A DNA stretch of 10,489 nucleotides from a virus. Lineage: Duplodnaviria; Heunggongvirae; Uroviricota; Caudoviricetes. Both the position numbers and the translations under genes were made by a program. The stretch spans positions 1-10,489 of the IMG/VR virus record IMGVR_UViG_2703718820_000012, one strand, 5' to 3'. Shown here one piece after another: positions 2,674-10,489 of this stretch; positions within the stretch are counted from its first letter, which is position 1; each line of letters opens with the position of its first letter. The notes under the pieces are model-generated. The model worked only from the letters and a program-made list of their open reading frames with translations. It ran no database searches and was not told the DNA's origin.

Positions 2674-2893
2674 ACTTCACCTAACTTAGCTTATTCTATC
2701 GAACAATAATTGAATCACATAGTTATAATGTAACTAGACGAATATATCCAATGTTTTTGAATATATTATTGACGAAGCAAGTCAACTGATCAATACTGTG
2801 TATAAAAAAACAACATCTTCACCACATATAAAAAAAACATAAAATCATGGTACTACCTCAAAGTCCTGACTCCTGCTGAATTGCTTAATCATA

Positions 2894-2995
2894 AGAAGCG
2901 CCATACAAAACAGGGAATAAAGAGCAACCTGACGCAAAAAGAGGAAAGCTACGGCCACTGGCTGCCAAAATGTTACGCTCCTGCAACAACCCTAC
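2894..2995 (+). pseudogene. Relic of primase 3' end (direct-repeat copy 2); not an independent gene
   Basis: Encodes KKRHTKQGIKSNLTQKEESYGHWLPKCYAPATT, which parallels EKRHTKQGIQTNLTLKEESYGDWLPKCDDPATA at the end of the 2-688 gene. The original stop is lost, so the track ORF 2881-3093 reads through into terminator and iteron DNA. Confidence 0.65.
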
Positions 2996-2998
2996 CTA

Positions 2999-3022
2999 GA
3001 CCGTCCTCTGCCGGTCTTTTTT
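2999..3022 (+). terminator. Degenerate copy of the primase terminator
   Basis: GACCG (2999-3003) / CGGTC (3012-3016) stem, 8-nt loop, then a T run (3017-3022); positionally equivalent to 696-720. Confidence 0.4.
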
Positions 3023-3036
3023 ATCCCGGCCCCCCA

Positions 3037-3157
3037 GAAGATGAACAATCCACTGTTCACCTTTCACCGTATATTCACCTGTTATCATACTGAAATTAAA
3101 AGAGAAAAATGAAAGGTGAACAGTGTGAACAATCAAATCAAAAAAACTCTTTTCTCC
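3037..3157. repeat. crr-like replication element, 120-bp direct repeat unit 1 (TGTTCACC-type iterons)
   Basis: Contains TGTTCACC (3054-3061), TTTCACC, ATTCACC, and inverted GGTGAACA (3115-3122) / GTGTGAACA (3123-3131). Aligns nearly base-for-base with unit 2. Confidence 0.7.
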
Positions 3158-3215: not shown

Positions 3216-3337
3216 GGAGGTGAAGAATCAAATGTTCACCCTTCACCCATTATTCACCACCTATCATACTGAAAGTAAAAGAGAAAACAGAAAGGTGAAC
3301 AGTGTGAACAGTTCTTTCGAAAAAAACTTTTTTCCTG
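3216..3337. repeat. crr-like replication element, 120-bp direct repeat unit 2
   Basis: TGTTCACC (3233-3240), CTTCACCC, ATTCACC, GGTGAACA (3294-3301), GTGTGAACA (3302-3310); offset 179 bp from unit 1. The ~58-bp spacer carries a hairpin CCGGCA-GAA-TGCCGG (3203-3217). Confidence 0.7.
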
Positions 3338-3620
3338 TACGATACAGCATCAATCAAAGTAAAAATGAGCTTTCATTCCACATTAACTTACAGCCATTGG
3401 TATACAATTAGGTATACGCACAAAAGCTGAATTAAATAAAATAATTAAAAATCAAAGAAATAAAATACTTATTCAAACTCCGCCAGCCCAATCATGATTG
3501 GACGGTGTAAGGACAACACCAACAAAAACAGGAAGTTAGCAGTCTCAGCAGGACACCGACCAGACGGTGAGGAGACAAAAAAGGATACGCAAAGGAGCCG
3601 CGGCTCTCGAGTGACACAAA

Positions 3621-3647
3621 AGCCCGCTTATGCGGGCTTTTTGTTTT
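3621..3647. terminator. Intrinsic terminator hairpin (A-tract / stem-loop / T-tract), orphan
   Basis: AGCCCGC (3621-3627) / GCGGGCT (3632-3638) stem with TTAT loop, preceded by AAAA and followed by TTTTTGTTTTT. No annotated CDS ends here. Confidence 0.55.
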
Positions 3648-3718
3648 TCCCTTAAGTTCCTAGCCGCTTATCTATAACTATGGAAAAATGTTAACCCTGA
3701 CTGTATGTTAACAAAGGG

Positions 3719-4933
3719 ATGTATATGTCGGTTTTTCATAACTGGCTGCTTGATATCGCAAGCGGGAATTACTTTATCTACATCAAACGCCTTTCTGCAA
3801 ACGACACAGGCGCAACAGGTGGCCATCAGGTCGGACTTTATATCCCCTCAAATATCGTTGAAAAGCTTTTTCCATCAATCAATCATACTCGCGAACTGAA
3901 CCCTTCAGTCTTCCTTACTGCGCATGTATCATCCCATGATTGCCCTGATACCCAAGCACGCGCAATTTATTACAACAACCGTTATTTTGGTAAGACCCGA
4001 AACGAAAAAAGAATTACGCGCTGGGGGAGAGGAAGTCCATTACAGAACCCTGAAAATACAGGAGCCCTCACAATTCTTGCTTTCAGGTTAAACGAACAGA
4101 ACACTGACTGTTCCGAGGTAGATATATGGGTCTGCGTCAATCCCGATGAAGAGGATATCATCGAGTCTGCTATTGGCGAAATCATACCTGGAACCCTAAT
4201 TTCCGGCCCTGCCGGACAAATTTTGGGCGGATTGTCTCTTCAGCAAACTCCAGTAAATCATAAATATGTTATTCCTGAAGACTGGAAGAAGCGTTTTCCT
4301 TCTGGAAACGAAATTATTCAATATGCTGCTGGCCATTATGCTAAAAACTCCAAGGATCCAGATGAGCAACTGATTGACCGTCGGCGTGTCGAGTATGATA
4401 TTTTTCTACTCGTCGAGGAATTACATGTTCTTGATATTATTAAGAAAGGATTCGATTCTGTAGATGAGTTTATTGCATTAGCCAACTCTGTCAGTAATCG
4501 ACGTAAATCAAGGGCAGGCAAATCACTTGAACTTCACCTAGAGAAGCTTTTTATCGAGCACGGACTACGGCATTTCTCCACTCAGGCAGTTACTGAAGGT
4601 AATAAAAAACCAGATTTCCTGTTTCCTTCAGCAGAGGCATATCATAACGTTGAATTTCCTGTAGAAAACTTACGTATGCTGGCAGTAAAGACCACCTGCA
4701 AAGATCGCTGGCGTCAGATACTGAATGAAGCAGATAAAATCCATCAGGTACATTTATTTACACTGCAAGAAGGTGTTTCTTCAGCACAATACCGAGAAAT
4801 GAAAGATGCGGGTGTCAGACTCGTTGTACCATCAACTTTACATAAAAAATACCCAGAAGCAGTTAGAGAAGAATTAATAACGCTCGGAGCATTCATTACT
4901 GAGCTGATAGAGCTTTACGCTGAACTATCATAG
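3719..4933 (+). CDS. ecoRIIR: Type IIE restriction endonuclease, EcoRII family (CCWGG)
   Basis: 404-aa ORF whose N-terminus (M-Y-MSVFHNWLLDIASGNYFIYIKRLSANDTGATGGHQVGLYIP…) I recognise as EcoRII; the length matches my recollection of R.EcoRII. It is convergent with a Dcm-like methyltransferase, as in the EcoRII system. Start ambiguity: ATG 3719 has a poorly spaced SD, ATG 3725 has AAGGGA at 5 nt. Confidence 0.85.
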   Translation: MYMSVFHNWLLDIASGNYFIYIKRLSANDTGATGGHQVGLYIPSNIVEKLFPSINHTRELNPSVFLTAHVSSHDCPDTQARAIYYNNRYFGKTRNEKRITRWGRGSPLQNPENTGALTILAFRLNEQNTDCSEVDIWVCVNPDEEDIIESAIGEIIPGTLISGPAGQILGGLSLQQTPVNHKYVIPEDWKKRFPSGNEIIQYAAGHYAKNSKDPDEQLIDRRRVEYDIFLLVEELHVLDIIKKGFDSVDEFIALANSVSNRRKSRAGKSLELHLEKLFIEHGLRHFSTQAVTEGNKKPDFLFPSAEAYHNVEFPVENLRMLAVKTTCKDRWRQILNEADKIHQVHLFTLQEGVSSAQYREMKDAGVRLVVPSTLHKKYPEAVREELITLGAFITELIELYAELS

Positions 4934-4938
4934 GCTGA

Positions 4939-4961
4939 CTCCCGGCTTAAAAGGCCGGGAG
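4939..4961. terminator. Inter-convergent hairpin, possible bidirectional terminator between R and M genes
   Basis: CTCCCGGC (4939-4946) / GCCGGGAG (4954-4961) perfect 8-bp stem with 7-nt loop, inside the 34-bp gap between the two stop codons. No clear T-tract. Confidence 0.4.
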
Positions 4962-4967
4962 ATGTTC

Positions 4968-6401
4968 TCAAGGCTGCCCAGTCTTACCAGCATCAGCAGA
5001 AACAGCTTTGAGGATATAGGGTTCCAGAAGTCTGGCAACAGCTTCAAATACTGGCACCACAACTGAGTTACCGAACTGCCGATATGACTGAGTATCTGAA
5101 ACCGGAATACGGAATGGTTTCCCTCCAGGTTTTTCAAATCCCATAAGGCGTGCACACTCTCGGGGAGTCAGCCTGCGTGGTCGACGAGCCTGATTACTCT
5201 CATTCATAAAGTCAGCCTCTCCCGTTGCCATATCCCAACCACGATCAATAAGAATTTCTGATCCGTCTTTGTGATATCTGGCAGAAAGTGTGCGTGCAAT
5301 GCTTTCCTTATTCTCAGGATTGACCAACCCAAAGCCAAAACCATTCCCCTTGGCTGCATGCTTTTTGGCGTAGTTATAAAGGTACTCCCATAGTTTTGGC
5401 GTAAGTATATATTTACTGTCGACTACAGGCTCCAGCAATTCACCAAATGATGGGCGGTGTTCCGGATAAAAACGACTGATATCACGCAAGGTAAACCCCT
5501 TGTGAATATTCAGATCTCGTCTAAATCCGACCAGAACAATGCGTTCACGATGCTGAGGCAAAAAATGCTTCCCATCGATAATCTTTGGATCGTTTTTTCC
5601 CATTTCTGCAGCATCGGCAACTTCGTAGCCCAGCTCGTCAAGGGTCTCCATAATCACTTTGAAAGTTTTACCCTTATCATGGCTCTTCAGATTTTTGACA
5701 TTTTCCAGCACAAAAATTGCCGGTTTTTTTGCTCGTATAATACGTGCCACGTCAAAAAAAAGTGTTCCTTGTGCTTCACATTCAAAACCATGCGCACGAC
5801 CAAGTGAGTTTTTCTTACTAACACCAGCAAGGCTAAATGGCTGGCACGGGAACCCCGCAAGAAGCACATCATGATCCGGCACATGCTCATCAATATATGC
5901 ATAAGCATCCGTTTCCAATACATCGGTTTTATCACTCAGCGTGACTTCCCGAATATCGAGATTGAATTTATGCACCTGTTCATCGTTAAACCAGTTGGCT
6001 TTGTATGTACGCACAGCATCTTTATTCCATTCACTGGTAAAAACACACTGGCCTCCAATGGCCTCAAAACCTTTCCGTATCCCTCCAATTCCAGCAAATA
6101 AGTCAATGAAGCGGAAAGCATATTCCGGATGGTTTGCAGGTGGTTCTGGTAGCATCTTACGCAGAAGAGACTCTTCTACTGAAGTCAACGATTTTGGTAA
6201 ACACTTGCCATTAATCCAGCGGTTAATGGTTTCACGGCTCCACTCATTTTTTCCGACTTTTCTCAGTAATTCAGCCACATACTTCTGATCATAGATTTCC
6301 AGCACTTTCTCGATAAGCTTTTTATCATTTTCCTGTCGCAGCTTTTCTTCCGCCTCGGCTTCCTTCAGCAGATGCTGTGCCAACACTTCAAATTCAGACA
6401 T
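4968..6401 (-). CDS. ecoRIIM: DNA (cytosine-5)-methyltransferase, M.EcoRII/Dcm family
   Basis: C5-MTase motifs: [32 protein letters not shown]-terminal [10 protein letters not shown]; strongly collinear with E. coli Dcm as I recall it. Start placed at the Met 15 codon (ATG at 6399-6401, GGAGG RBS with 4-nt spacer), giving 477 aa; the track's 491-aa start at 6443 has no RBS. Confidence 0.85.
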
Positions 6402-6762
6402 AATTCCTCCAAGGGGTCTAATGGGTGAAACTTTATCACTCATTCAACCCAGAAGGAAATGTTTTATCTGGATATTTAAACAGTGACTACAACGTAATCT
6501 AGCACTGGTGATGCTTTGTTAGGCATAGAGAATCATTCTATATACGACTAATGACAGAAAAACAGCAGACAAGTAGTTTGTTCATAAATTAACGCATACT
6601 ATGTGTCTACGGTTTTCGAGACCGGTCCAATCATCAAACGAAACATAAAATTAGCTCACATTATGAGGAAAAGTATCTTTTTTGTACTATGTAAATTCAA
6701 AGGCTTAGCCTCATTTCTCCGATGGTTTTCTCAACACTACTGGTTGTGAGCCCTTGCAATGA

Positions 6763-7581
<819 letters not shown>

Positions 7582-7603: not shown

Positions 7604-7642
7604 CCGCAGCACGATCTTCTTCCATACGACGTGCTACGGTTT
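7604..7642. terminator. Possible bidirectional terminator hairpin between convergent GIY-YIG and invertase genes
   Basis: CCGCAGCACG (7604-7613) / CGTGCTACGG (7630-7639), one mismatch, 16-nt loop, AAA upstream and TTT downstream. The long loop makes this weak. Confidence 0.3.
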
Positions 7643-8196
7643 CATTTATCTCCGACCGGAAACTTCTTATACAGTGTCGATATACCAACATCATAGATGA
7701 TCGCCACCTTCTGGCGAGGAACGCCTGATGCAATTAATCGCCCGGCCTGCGCCCATTGTTCTGGTGTAAGTTTGGGACGACGTCCACCAATTCGTCCCTG
7801 TGCGCGAGCAGCTTCCAGTCCAGCTTTTGTTCGTTCAACAATCAGTTCTCGTTCCATTTCAGCCAGGGCACCCATCACATGAAAGAAAAAACGCCCCATC
7901 GGTGTGCTGGTATCAATAGCATCCGTCAGACTGCGAAAATTAACGCCACGTTCGCGCAACTCCTCAACCAGAATGACCAGATGCCGCATACTACGCCCCA
8001 GCCGATCCAGCTTCCAGACAACCAGAGTGTCACCTGCCGATAATGTCCTGAGCAGTTTTTTCAGTCCCGGCCTTTCGGACTTTGTACCGCTTATCTTGTC
8101 TTCAAAAATCAGCTCGCATCCTGCACAGTTCAGCGCATTACGTTGTAGATCTGTGTTCTGGTCATTTGTTGATACGCGTACATAGCCAATAAGCAT
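7642..8196 (-). CDS. Serine-recombinase DNA invertase, Pin/Gin/Cin/Hin family
   Basis: From the internal Met: MLIGYVRVSTNDQNTDLQRNAL…GDTLVVWKLDRLGRSM…MGRFFFHVMGALAEMERELIVERT…GRIGGRRPKLT…, the catalytic Ser region and C-terminal HTH typical of Gin/Pin. Start set at ATG 8194-8196 (185 aa); the 12-codon upstream extension in the track is not supported. Confidence 0.85.
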   Translation of the reverse strand: MLIGYVRVSTNDQNTDLQRNALNCAGCELIFEDKISGTKSERPGLKKLLRTLSAGDTLVVWKLDRLGRSMRHLVILVEELRERGVNFRSLTDAIDTSTPMGRFFFHVMGALAEMERELIVERTKAGLEAARAQGRIGGRRPKLTPEQWAQAGRLIASGVPRQKVAIIYDVGISTLYKKFPVGDK

Positions 8197-8250: not shown

Positions 8251-8276
8251 TTTTCATAAACGTTGGTTTGGGAGAA
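8251..8276. repeat. Left inversion crossover site (hix/gix/pix-like 26-bp site, TT core at 8263-8264)
   Basis: TTTTCATAAACG-TT-GGTTTGGGAGAA; inner half-site identical to the right site; AAACN-NN-GGTTT architecture. Confidence 0.7.
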
Positions 8277-8630
8277 GCGGCAAAACGGAATGTAGGTAAC
8301 GGGCAAAACCAAATTCCGGATATGGCGGCGTTTGCCAGTTCACTTTCATCAACGGGTTTTCAAAAACTCCCTTCAGGTCTGATTATTCAGTGGGGTATTG
8401 TCAGTGGAGCATCAAACTATACGGTGACTTACCCGGTAACATTCCCAAATCGTTCACTTGCGCTGTTGGCTGTGCCACATACAACGTCGGTGGCTGGTAT
8501 ATCTGCAATGGGCATAGCGAACTGTTCTGATATCAGCAAATCACAGTTCTATATAATTGTTGGCGGTATATCTCAGGGAGAAATTGTCAAATATGAAAGG
8601 TCCTGTTTTTGGGTAGCAATCGGTGTATAG
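8265..8630 (+). CDS. Silent alternative tail-fibre C-terminal (receptor-binding) cassette
   Basis: Begins [20 protein letters not shown]…, paralleling [20 protein letters not shown] in the expressed fibre. It would be fused in frame to the constant part after inversion; the ATG at 8223 is fortuitous. Confidence 0.6.
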   Translation, partial: GLGEAAKRNVGNGQNQIPDMAAFASSLSSTGFQKLPSGLIIQWGIVSGASNYTVTYPVTFPNRSLALLAVPHTTSVAGISAMGIANCSDISKSQFYIIVGGISQGEIVKYERSCFWVAIGV

Positions 8631-9034: not shown

Positions 9035-9425
9035 GCCATTCAATATCTGGCGCACCGGAAGTATCGACCAGTTCCAGTGCGTCCAGGTAATCCAGCCACA
9101 AATTATATTGTGCCAGTTCCTCACCTTTCAGCCGGCCAATAGCCGCTTTACCAGGCCATTGTTTACTGTTCATATAATCGTTGGCCTGTTCAATAAGTAT
9201 ATTTTTCATTCCCTCCGCTTCAGCTATTTCCTGTTCATGTGTCTTCGCTGGATATTCAGTAAGTACAGGGTAGTTATCCGGGCTATTGATAATAATTTTC
9301 CCCGTACTCTGACCATTCATAAGTTCATAATAAAGAGCATCTTCAATATCGAAAGCATCATCGGGAATATCGCTGTTGTTTTCAGAGAAAAATCCCTGAA
9401 CAGATGGGGACCATTTCATTTTCAT
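9006..9425 (-). CDS. Tail fibre assembly protein (Tfa/U type, currently in expressed orientation)
   Basis: [16 protein letters not shown]…[16 protein letters not shown]. Start ATG overlaps the stop of the upstream fibre gene (ATGA coupling at 9422-9425); 3' end overlaps the other tfa by 29 bp. Confidence 0.75.
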
Positions 9426-10489
9426 AATTTCCCAATTCCTAAAATATGGACATCATCAGCCTTACGGGCATTCCAGGTGACAATTACATCGGTAGAGTGA
9501 CGATTAACTGAGATTGCGTATGCTTCGTTAGTCGAGCCAGAAACTTTTGTGGCAAACACAGCAAACAGGACACCAAATGACTGGGGCCATTTATAGCCTG
9601 ACAGCTGATAATTACCATTATCCAGTGTTACAGCTTTGACTGCTGCACTTGATGGAATCGTCAGCCACTGGAGTATCAACCCTCCTGGCAAAAGTTGTTT
9701 TCCATAAAAATCCCTCACACCACTAAATGAAACCATATCCGGTATCTGATTTTCCCCTGTTCCCACGTCCCGTTTTGCCGCTTCTCCCAAACCAAGGTTT
9801 TCGAGAGCCGTTTGCACAGTGCCATCCGATTTGATATCGCCAAACGGATTCTTGCGGCTTAACAGCAGCGCACGAAGTGCGGTAAGCATCTGGTCATGCC
9901 GCCCTTTCTCCAGGCTGGCACCGGAGGCCTCCACCACGCTACAAAGTTCTTCCTGCAACATGTCAAAGTAGTCATCATCCAGATCGGTGGCAGGTGTGCC
10001 GGTCTGGGGGTTACCACGGGTATCCGGTTTGTCGGTGTTACTGCCCTGACCGTTCTCTCTGTGACGATGCCCGTTATAGGCAAGCCGCATCGCTGACATG
10101 GTGGTGCCGCCGGAGTCGCACAGGTCTTTCACCTGTCCGGTCACTTCCAGGTCCATTTCAAAACGTGCTTCAGGTGCATTGCGAAACGTGATCGTTTTAC
10201 CTGCACCGTCCACCACGATCCCCTCCCGGGTCAGCGTCACGGACTGCCCCTGATCGTCATAGACAGCCACCTCGCCCGTCTGCAGCCCTTTCAGGCGGTA
10301 GCGACGGTCCGACACCGTAACAACCACCGCATGAGAACGGTCGCCATCCGGAAACAACACCACCGCTTCCGCACCGCTGTTTGCCCTTGCGGTAAAACCG
10401 TAGGGTTCAAGATGTTCAACCCCGGCTTTGGGTTCACCGGCAATCAGGGACACATCCACGGTCTGTAGTGGCACACTAAATTTGGCCAC
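9422..10489 (-). CDS. Phage tail fibre protein, 3' portion (constant region plus currently fused variable tip); 5' end beyond window
   Basis: Open frame from the window edge to the stop at 9422-9424. The constant/variable junction at [13 protein letters not shown] coincides with the right crossover site. The upstream part (…FPDG…DSGGTT…HRH…) loosely resembles baseplate-spike (gpV-like) proteins, but this is tentative. Confidence 0.65.
9782..9807. repeat. Right inversion crossover site (hix/gix-like, AA core at 9794-9795)
   Basis: TTCTCCCAAACC-AA-GGTTTTCGAGAG; about 21 of 26 positions match hixL (TTCTTGAAAACCAAGGTTTTTGATAA) as I recall it. Confidence 0.7.

Follow-up and report, generated by a model that had tools for sequence, protein, structure and literature searches.

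An EcoRII-type restriction–modification gene pair in an e14-like prophage, at its attachment-site end

Results

A convergent endonuclease and methyltransferase gene pair

The window, i.e. the whole stretch of 10,489 nucleotides that we analysed (IMG/VR record IMGVR_UViG_2703718820_000012), carries two convergent genes: R, an endonuclease gene of the EcoRII family (Type IIE, CCWGG) on the plus strand (positions 3719–4933), and M, the gene of an M.EcoRII-type C5-cytosine methyltransferase on the minus strand (4968–6401). They are separated by a gap of 34 bp (4934–4967), the layout noted in the first-pass annotation of this DNA, which had also pointed out a hairpin with an 8-bp stem in the gap.

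The R open reading frame has 404 codons and, as that annotation had recognized, codes for an EcoRII-type endonuclease with both domains of the enzyme. It aligns with crystallised EcoRII (PDB code: 1NA6) over 403 residues without any gap, at 86.1% identity (E = 3e-243 in the PDB search). The N-terminal effector domain (EcoRII-N), a B3-like pseudobarrel, is detected by Pfam PF09217 (E = 3.9e-61, residues 18–165) and matches PDB entry 3HQF (E = 7.6e-100), and the C-terminal PD-(D/E)XK catalytic domain (EcoRII-C) is detected by PF09019 (E = 2.4e-71). The length of 404 residues given by the first-pass annotation stands for the open reading frame and not necessarily for the protein: the RefSeq annotation of the gene starts at ATG 3725 (402 residues), and AAGGGA (3713–3718), the sole Shine–Dalgarno-like run near R, touches ATG 3719 and lies 6 nt ahead of ATG 3725, so that ATG 3725 may be the translated start.

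R was compared with EcoRII at 27 residues to which a function has been assigned (Golovenko et al. 2009; PMC2770665). All 27 are identical in R, as they are in four other lineages; they comprise (i) the active site (E271, D299, K324 and E337, 4/4); (ii) the residues that read CC:GG (K328, D329, R330 and N260); (iii) the pocket of the flipped base (R222, E225, Y226, F229, R265 and A266); (iv) the base contacts of the effector domain (N28, H36, Q37, Y85, R94, E96 and R98); and (v) phosphate contacts (Y41, R81, K92, T93, T100 and R101). The 56 of 403 residues that differ from the prototype include positions 87–89, in the C-arm loop of the effector domain. No inactivating substitution in the effector or the catalytic domain was found by this residue comparison with EcoRII. 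Thus, both ways in which the first-pass annotation might have failed, a lack of homology or an inactivated catalytic motif, are contradicted: the homology of the pair to EcoRII and Dcm is clear and the active-site residues are intact. Compared with the plasmid gene, R displays a dN/dS of 0.045 (dS ~1.7), the mark of purifying selection.

EcoRII is inactive on a single site and depends on a further copy that serves as effector, and both of its domains are blocked once the second C is methylated (PMC2770665), which agrees with what the first-pass annotation had put forward as established. From its 86% identity to this characterised enzyme, R is predicted not to cleave at a single site, to be activated by extra CCWGG copies and to be blocked by 5-methylation of the inner cytosine. 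PspGI (CCWGG) and Ecl18kI/SsoII (CCNGG) have in common with R the catalytic fold, the flipping of the central pair and the K-D-R readout of CC:GG (PMC2770665), but their sequence similarity to R is marginal (E about 1e-4 in the PDB search) and they are devoid of the N-terminal effector domain; hence, they are not Type IIE enzymes.

M contains an N-terminal regulatory DNA-binding domain (DNA_meth_N, PF18284, E = 6.6e-27, residues 28–84) followed by a catalytic domain (residues 96–457; DNA_methylase, PF00145, E = 4.4e-78). The C5-methyltransferase motifs I (FAGIGG), IV (PCQ, with Cys186), VI (ENV), VIII (QHRER), IX (RE) and X (GNS) are all there, at residues 102, 185, 233, 283, 414 and 444, respectively, and the score against NCBIfam NF007772 is 927 bits (cutoff 710). 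The 477-residue Dcm-like methyltransferase of the first-pass annotation is therefore genuine, but it is nearer to plasmid M.EcoRII (90.6% identity) than to the Dcm protein of Escherichia coli K-12 (66%). From motif VIII to motif IX, M and M.EcoRII are nearly identical; together with the overall identity, this suggests that M methylates the inner cytosine of CCWGG. Its dN/dS relative to the plasmid gene is 0.033 (dS ~1.7), also indicative of purifying selection.

K-12 Dcm resembles M in its subfamily (NF007772), its DNA_meth_N layout and its expected target and base, whereas it departs from M over the first 30 residues and at the C-terminus. Moreover, the K-12 gene lacks a restriction-enzyme partner and overlaps the vsr gene. 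No vsr gene was found beside M, whose 3' end faces R. Since a convergent EcoRII gene lies 34 bp away and vsr is absent, the locus is of the M.EcoRII type and not a Dcm–Vsr orphan.

The M open reading frame extends in full from 4968 to 6443 (minus strand, 491 codons), and 477 codons remain when it is read from ATG 6401. The latter start, which the first-pass annotation had preferred, is the correct one: GGAGG (6406–6410) lies 4 nt upstream of ATG 6401, RefSeq gives 477 residues in every homologue, and a 1-nt deletion in the Enterobacter ludwigii homologue creates a TAG between the two candidate ATGs. The 42 nt between ATG 6443 and ATG 6401 display four non-synonymous and two synonymous differences from the plasmid gene, although synonymous changes would dominate in coding DNA at these rates. 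This stretch is therefore non-coding, and ATG 6443 was rejected as the start of M.

Conserved non-coding elements

The hairpin in the gap (CTCCCGGC/GCCGGGAG) forms eight Watson–Crick pairs. As plus-strand RNA it folds with 10 pairs (4939–4948 with 4952–4961) at −19 kcal/mol (z = −2.3, equalled by 5 of 200 shuffled sequences), and as minus-strand RNA with eight pairs at −16 kcal/mol (z = −1.9); by folding statistics alone it is only mildly unusual. The stem is nevertheless kept in five EcoRII lineages despite diverged flanks and loop, with one compensatory change from C:G to A:U. The element (4939–4961) sits between the convergent stop codons and lacks a U-tract, and the terminator scan did not return it among canonical terminators. 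It probably serves to block transcription from both directions or to stabilise 3' ends.

Upstream of M, an 82-bp block (6402–6483, minus strand) contains the ribosome-binding site described above and the non-coding ATG (6441–6443). Across the five lineages, 76.8% of its columns are invariant, as against 34.9% of the third-codon positions of M. The block includes an inverted repeat, ATCCAGA (6467–6473) N13 TCTGGGT (6447–6453), of which the arms are invariant and the spacer varies. Methyltransferases of the M.EcoRII type repress their own promoter via an N-terminal helix-turn-helix, as reported in a review that cites Som & Friedman 1994 for EcoRII (PMC3874152); the autoregulation mentioned in the first-pass annotation thus has a source. 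Our literature search on EcoRII autoregulation returned nothing beyond this review, on which the claim consequently rests. In view of the reported role of the N-terminal domain, the inverted repeat is a candidate operator for autorepression of M.

Upstream of R, the block TATAA(C/T)TATG(G/A)AAAAATG (3673–3691, plus strand) is conserved in the five EcoRII lineages, whereas the sequence farther upstream diverges; this pattern makes it a putative −10 region of the R promoter. A consensus promoter scan gave no canonical sigma-70 promoter for either R or M, with no more matches than in shuffled sequence, and it missed the 3673–3691 block because a good −35 element is absent. Expression of R and M is therefore assumed here, and the promoter assignments are those suggested by conservation. 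Further upstream, the terminator scan identified an intrinsic terminator (3618–3651, plus strand) with a 10-bp GC-rich stem and a T-run. It belongs to the prophage-end sequence shared with strain M37H and would keep transcription that arrives from ssrA or the satellite from reaching R.

Altogether, the operon layout (convergent R and M, a short hairpin-containing gap, and conserved DNA upstream of M) is identical across the five lineages. The prototype on plasmids (PDB codes: 1NA6, 3HQF and 3HQG) shares with the window pair the gene order, the convergence, the 404 and 477 codons, the gap of 33–34 bp with its hairpin, the conserved block upstream of M, the two-domain endonuclease with all catalytic, recognition and effector residues, and, in M, the motifs and the regulatory domain at the N-terminus. 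The two differ in sequence, with DNA ~80% identical and proteins 86–87% (R) and 91% (M) identical, and in location: plasmid EcoRII is found on conjugative enterobacterial plasmids, whereas the window pair is chromosomal and prophage-borne. Because dS is ~1.7, with synonymous sites near saturation, the window pair represents an old sister lineage of plasmid EcoRII rather than a recent transfer.

A defence island at the end of an e14-like prophage

The 3' end of ssrA, the tmRNA gene, is present as a decayed copy at 3472–3494. This attachment-site remnant marks the boundary between the end of a P4-like satellite on the left and the prophage end on the right. In prophages sited directly at ssrA, the homology begins at window position 3472, which corresponds to the final 23 nt of ssrA as annotated in strain M37H; the window sequence ACTCCGCCAGC-CCAATCATGATTGG aligns with ACTCCCGCCAGCTCCACCAATCATGATTGG of ssrA. 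An Rfam scan of the whole window (E ≤ 0.1) gave no match, the 23-nt remnant being too short. To the right of the R–M pair, the same prophage end carries CMoRE, also known as PD-T4-3 (6808–7581, plus strand), a GIY-YIG type IV nuclease outside the R–M system, which matches PDB entry 9U75 over its full length (residues 1–257, E = 3.1e-170) and the PADLOC PD-T4-3 model (E = 1.1e-139). CMoRE is a validated nuclease specific for DNA containing 5hmC or glucosyl-5hmC (PMC12923530). Next comes a pinE-type serine DNA invertase gene (7642–8196, minus strand), with which the tail-fibre inversion module of the prophage begins; the inverted-repeat arms of the module lie at 8258–8325 and 9733–9800. The order is thus decayed ssrA site, R–M pair, CMoRE, pinE and then the invertible genes for tail fibres, all of the prophage part being e14-like. 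This context bears out the mobile setting and the defence island proposed in the first-pass annotation.

Close relatives of the window prophage occupy two sites, one at ssrA and the other beside paoABCD. The slot beyond CMoRE contains different genes in EDL933, G5 and BEN2908 (a DUF262 protein), and mcrA in the e14 element of K-12. Since R–M and CMoRE are adjacent and the content of the slot varies among related mobile elements, the island is a genuine hotspot for prophage defence cargo. In e14, mcrA occupies the same slot, as a nuclease defence gene flanked by the pin invertase on one side and the attachment site on the other, but McrA is unrelated to EcoRII, is encoded by one gene and is methylation-dependent, and e14 integrates at icd instead of ssrA or the paoABCD site. 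Note that the e14-like prophage has lost its baseplate genes by deletion, so that the island may be decaying. A collection of phage genomes contained no copy of the R–M pair or of CMoRE, which is why no sequenced free phage can be named as a carrier; only the 150 nt proximal to the attachment site were matched, in two coliphages, where they are annotated as a tmRNA pseudogene.

Distribution in E. coli

As stated by the first-pass annotation, the system is a known one: the exact R and M proteins are public, each on at least 1000 contigs, and R–M DNA at least 99% identical to that of the window occurs in 263 chromosomal records among 5426 complete E. coli genomes. Three records labelled as plasmids also reached 99% identity; a plasmid origin was rejected for the one examined, which contains the chromosomal genes paoABCD and the same prophage end and looks like a chromosomal segment. 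Matching plasmids number 642, of which 481 are conjugative, and strain M37H harbours both a prophage copy and a plasmid copy of an EcoRII-type pair. The dcm gene is found in 5368 of the 5426 genomes (98.9%). The window itself contains 12 CCWGG sites, where base composition predicts 12.5 and a third-order Markov model 23, which gives no clear sign of selection.

Discussion

Taken together, these data make it highly probable that the pair is a functional EcoRII-type Type IIE restriction–modification system, the accessory cargo of an e14-like prophage, now defective, at its attachment-site end. The residue-level homology predicts Type IIE behaviour and specificity for CCWGG, and sensitivity to methylation, autorepression and the proposed function of the hairpin would likewise follow from homology. 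M would add a methyl group to C5 of the inner CCWGG cytosine, and probably represses its own promoter when its N-terminal domain binds the conserved block upstream. R is expected to form a dimer, in which the N-terminal B3-like domains would keep the catalytic core off until further unmethylated CCWGG copies are bound, upon which the C-terminal domains would flip the central base pair and then cleave. Invading DNA that contains several unmethylated copies of CCWGG would thereby be destroyed and methylated host and prophage DNA spared, while the conserved hairpin probably keeps each transcript from entering the opposite gene antisense. Together with CMoRE, the pair would let the prophage end deal with invaders whose cytosine is unmodified as well as with those whose cytosine is hypermodified (hmC, glucosyl-hmC). 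Given that dcm is nearly universal in the host, most DNA from other E. coli should already be protected and loss of the system should not be lethal; both its defence value and its addiction value in an E. coli host are therefore limited.

A bolder extension, which we regard as possible though rather doubtful, is that this EcoRII lineage and CMoRE form a co-selected module that senses the state of cytosine, and that the inverted repeat is an operator timing the establishment of restriction–modification after lysogeny. If so, one nuclease would deal with unmodified CCWGG and the other with hmC and glucosyl-hmC, and the 5mC made by M would be invisible to CMoRE. As 99% of E. coli carry Dcm, the selective value of such a module might lie in phage traffic via hosts that lack Dcm or contain plasmid EcoRII.

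Alternatively, the pair could be kept mainly as a selfish stabiliser of the prophage end through post-segregational killing, or as self-protection of the phage against plasmid EcoRII. EcoRII is a documented post-segregational killer (PMC3874152), EcoRII-type pairs sit on mobile elements wherever they are found (mostly conjugative plasmids, and a prophage here), strain M37H has both copies, and a prophage-borne M would shield a phage entering cells with plasmid EcoRII. However, killing after EcoRII loss is reportedly neutralised by host Dcm (PMC3874152), so that addiction should be weak in an E. coli host, and the neighbours found in the same slot are dedicated defence nucleases (CMoRE, mcrA in e14 and the DUF262 protein of BEN2908). 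We thus consider this explanation unlikely as the main one, a stabilising role being in any case compatible with defence.

It is very improbable that R is silent or inactive and that only M matters, in which case the host would have, besides Dcm, another orphan methylase of that kind with an epigenetic or anti-restriction role. The lack of a detectable canonical promoter, the strong terminator 70 bp upstream, the degraded state of the prophage and the presence of host Dcm, owing to which substrates would rarely be met, would fit such a scenario, but R is full length, retains every functional residue examined under a low dN/dS, is conserved together with M at 99% identity or more in the 263 records and is preceded by the −10-like block in five lineages, while an unselected gene would be expected to accumulate frameshifts or stop codons. 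Least credible of all is a drift of the pair to another specificity, e.g. CCNGG or CCSGG as in Ecl18kI/SsoII relatives: despite the 56 substitutions in R, its weak similarity to Ecl18kI and PspGI and the fact that relatives read CCNGG with nearly identical pockets (PMC2770665), the published base contacts are identical in both domains, including those of the effector domain to the central T:A (Q37, Y85, R98 and N28), the region between motifs VIII and IX of M is nearly that of M.EcoRII, and host survival demands that R and M match in specificity.

An EcoRII-type system is in itself ordinary here, of low novelty and annotated in hundreds of E. coli genomes, and the pair leaves the current understanding of restriction–modification systems unchanged. 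Its analysis mainly benefits annotation, by setting the M start at 6401, by flagging that the endonuclease is likely to be a 402-residue protein and by giving a probable CCWGG specificity to two proteins that bear only generic names in RefSeq. It also adds to the EcoRII family, known classically from plasmids, an old lineage that is chromosomal and borne by a prophage, and presents the pin-to-att end of e14-like prophages as a slot in which nuclease defences (EcoRII-type R–M, CMoRE, McrA and the DUF262 protein) are swapped.

An intact EcoRII-type restriction–modification system

The window contains a real, intact EcoRII-type restriction–modification (R-M) system. As announced in the first-pass annotation, two convergent open reading frames, R for the endonuclease (3719–4933, + strand, 404 aa) and M for the C5-methyltransferase (4968–6443, − strand, 491 aa, or 477 aa when begun at ATG 6401), are present and are separated by a 34-bp gap (4934–4967) containing an inverted repeat, CTCCCGGC / GCCGGGAG. 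The R product comprises both EcoRII domains (Pfam EcoRII-N, 3.9e-61; EcoRII-C, 2.4e-71) and aligns without gaps with crystallised EcoRII (1NA6; E = 3e-243, 86.1% identity). The functional residues of EcoRII, as listed by Golovenko et al. 2009 (PMC2770665), form (i) the active site (E271, D299, K324 and E337); (ii) the CC:GG readout (K328, D329, R330 and N260); (iii) the pocket into which the central base flips (R222, E225, Y226, F229, R265 and A266); (iv) the base contacts of the effector domain (N28, H36, Q37, Y85, R94, E96 and R98); and (v) the phosphate contacts (Y41, R81, K92, T93, T100 and R101). Because all 27 are identical in R, as they are in four further lineages of the family, inactivating substitutions in the catalytic motif, which the annotation had named as evidence against its assignment, are absent.

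The M product displays the Pfam DNA_methylase (4.4e-78) and N-terminal DNA_meth_N (6.6e-27) domains, scores 927 bits against NCBIfam NF007772 (cutoff 710) and is 90.6% identical to M.EcoRII from a conjugative-type plasmid, versus 66.3% to K-12 Dcm; between motifs VIII and IX, it is near-identical to M.EcoRII. All the motifs are found (FAGIGG, PCQ, ENV, QHRER, RE and GNS), with the catalytic cysteine at position 186, as in M.EcoRII. K-12 dcm overlaps vsr; the locus in the window has no vsr, and M faces a convergent R gene; therefore, the locus is of the M.EcoRII type, not of the Dcm type.

The system is very probably functional. By homology, M would methylate the inner C of CCWGG, and R would remain autoinhibited until its effector domains bind additional unmethylated CCWGG copies, and then cut; methylated CCWGG would block both R domains. 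EcoRII itself requires effector copies, and methylation blocks both its domains (PMC2770665). Since 5368 of 5426 E. coli genomes carry dcm, DNA from most other E. coli is already protected, and Dcm reportedly cancels the killing that follows EcoRII loss (PMC3874152). Thus, in an E. coli host, the pair can be of value for defence or addiction only when it meets DNA without Dcm-type methylation. CCWGG counts gave no clear signal of selection.

Start codons and conserved non-coding elements

The first-pass annotation was right to place the M start at ATG 6401 rather than 6443: a GGAGG lies 4 nt upstream of ATG 6401, the RefSeq length is 477 aa in all homologues inspected, and the 42 nt from ATG 6443 to ATG 6401 show four non-synonymous and two synonymous changes relative to the plasmid gene, the reverse of a coding pattern. 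Moreover, owing to a 1-nt deletion, the Enterobacter ludwigii homologue has a TAG between these two start codons. For R, ATG 3725 is a more likely start than ATG 3719. RefSeq uses ATG 3725 (402 aa) for the window-type gene and gives 404 aa for three plasmid homologues; AAGGGA, the sole run of purines there in the window, is immediately next to ATG 3719 and 6 nt upstream of ATG 3725; and the sole variable position of the N-terminus is codon 2 (Y, F, L, L, L). The two-residue difference is of no consequence.

We aligned five lineages (the window, an E. coli plasmid, and Pantoea, E. ludwigii and Salmonella plasmids) to look for conserved non-coding elements. Upstream of M (6402–6483), 76.8% of the columns are invariant, versus 34.9% at M third codon positions. 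This block contains, in the sense of the − strand, an inverted repeat, ATCCAGA (6467–6473) and TCTGGGT (6447–6453), with invariant arms and a variable 13-nt spacer. Such methyltransferases repress their own gene through an N-terminal helix-turn-helix that binds an operator overlapping the promoter, according to a review that cites Som and Friedman 1994 for EcoRII (PMC3874152); ATCCAGA-N13-TCTGGGT is a candidate operator for M autorepression. Each arm also resembles a CCWGG site over four of its five positions. Upstream of R, a TATAA(C/T)TATG(G/A)AAAAATG block is conserved, and the terminator scan predicts a strong terminator at 3618–3651.

The hairpin in the gap would form 10 pairs in R-strand RNA (4939–4948 with 4952–4961; −19 kcal/mol, z = −2.3) and 8 pairs on the opposite strand (z = −1.9). 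No U-tract follows it on either strand, and it is absent from the results of the terminator scan. Its stem is kept among the five lineages while its loop and flanks diverge; in Pantoea, an A:U replaces one C:G, both sides having changed.

A sister lineage of plasmid EcoRII

Compared to the plasmid genes, dN/dS is 0.045 for R and 0.033 for M, with dS about 1.7: the prophage-type and plasmid-type lineages are old and both under strong purifying selection. Among 5426 complete E. coli genomes, DNA at least 99% identical to the pair occurs in 263 records, at 268 chromosomal places, the classical plasmid version forming a separate band at about 80% DNA identity. Proteins identical to the 402-aa and 477-aa products are already public, each in at least 1000 contigs, under generic names only ('type II restriction endonuclease', 'DNA cytosine methyltransferase'). 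The pair represents a lineage that is sister to the plasmid EcoRII prototype, already annotated in many genomes, and its novelty is low. E. coli M37H carries both types, one on the chromosome and one on plasmid perm_M37H (about 80% DNA identity); with the near-universal host dcm, this would make three CCWGG methyltransferase genes per cell.

A variable cargo slot at a prophage end

Homology to intact prophages starts at 3472, inside the final 23 nt of ssrA, and the order in M37H is ssrA, R, M, a GIY-YIG gene, pinE, invertible tail-fibre genes, baseplate, tail, head and terminase. This places the R-M pair, as cargo, at the attachment-site end of an e14-like prophage whose tail is of the Mu type. 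The same R-M–CMoRE–pinE end (CMoRE being the GIY-YIG gene) is also found beside paoABCD, as is, in strain G5, a related end with CMoRE and without R-M; ssrA is therefore not the sole integration site of this family. A 30-kb 'plasmid' record (NZ_CP104634.1, pHNAH212872-4) carries the R-M–CMoRE–pinE end together with chromosomal paoABCD, and appears to be a piece of chromosome or an excised circle, not a true plasmid. Both in the window and in ETEC1717, a P4-like satellite has inserted in tandem; in the window, its primase gene ends at 688.

The GIY-YIG gene (6808–7581, + strand) is CMoRE/PD-T4-3 (PADLOC, 1.1e-139; PDB 9U75, 3.1e-170), a recently characterised type IV enzyme that destroys DNA containing 5hmC or glucosyl-5hmC but does not bind or cleave DNA that is unmodified or carries 5mC (PMC12923530). 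It is therefore compatible with the 5mC that M would make, and it complements EcoRII. R-M lies next to CMoRE in 244 E. coli genomes, and several hundred more have CMoRE without R-M. In the latter, homology breaks at 6594–6607, beyond which lie an AraC-type gene in EDL933, two hypothetical genes in G5 and, in BEN2908, several genes including one for a DUF262 protein; in K-12 e14, by comparison, mcrA adjoins pinE in the corresponding slot. The mobile context and defence island proposed for the pair are thereby borne out and can be specified: the stretch from the pin invertase to the attachment site is a slot for variable cargo, a genuine defence hotspot at the prophage end, and the pair is part of it.

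Other features of the prophage and satellite ends

Next to pinE (7642–8196, − strand), 68-nt inverted repeats (8258–8325 and 9733–9800, 84% complementary) enclose a 1.4-kb segment that holds alternative tips of the tail fibre and two genes for fibre assembly; this arrangement is an invertible host-range switch of the Pin type. At 10021–10022, a deletion junction marks the absence of about 2.1 kb relative to the intact relatives ETEC1717 and M37H, with loss of gp46, baseplate J/gp47 and ymfQ, and an in-frame fusion joins the baseplate V gene to the tail-fibre gene (ORF 9422–10489, − strand); the prophage bearing the R-M pair is therefore defective.

A rare 2.1-kb cassette (781–2893; 5 of 5426 E. 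coli genomes) contains two convergent genes overlapping by 33 bp (1186–1872, + strand; 1840–2673, − strand), which code for a HAD-IB phosphatase and a 277-aa protein. The latter weakly resembles the dCTP-deaminase/dUTPase (DCD) fold at its N-terminus, appears from its sequence to continue with hydrophobic transmembrane-like and then coiled-coil-like stretches, and has no match in PADLOC or PHROG. The cassette, which lies just downstream of a P4-like satellite primase gene in all three loci inspected, at two chromosomal sites, could encode a defence pair, not described before, that acts by depleting nucleotides. It is flanked by two to three diverged direct copies (578–780, 2884–3080, 3039–3153 and 3218–3332; 80–85% identical) of the primase 3′ end, terminator and downstream sequence, which suggests that satellite ends lying in tandem recombined, and not that a recent duplication took place.
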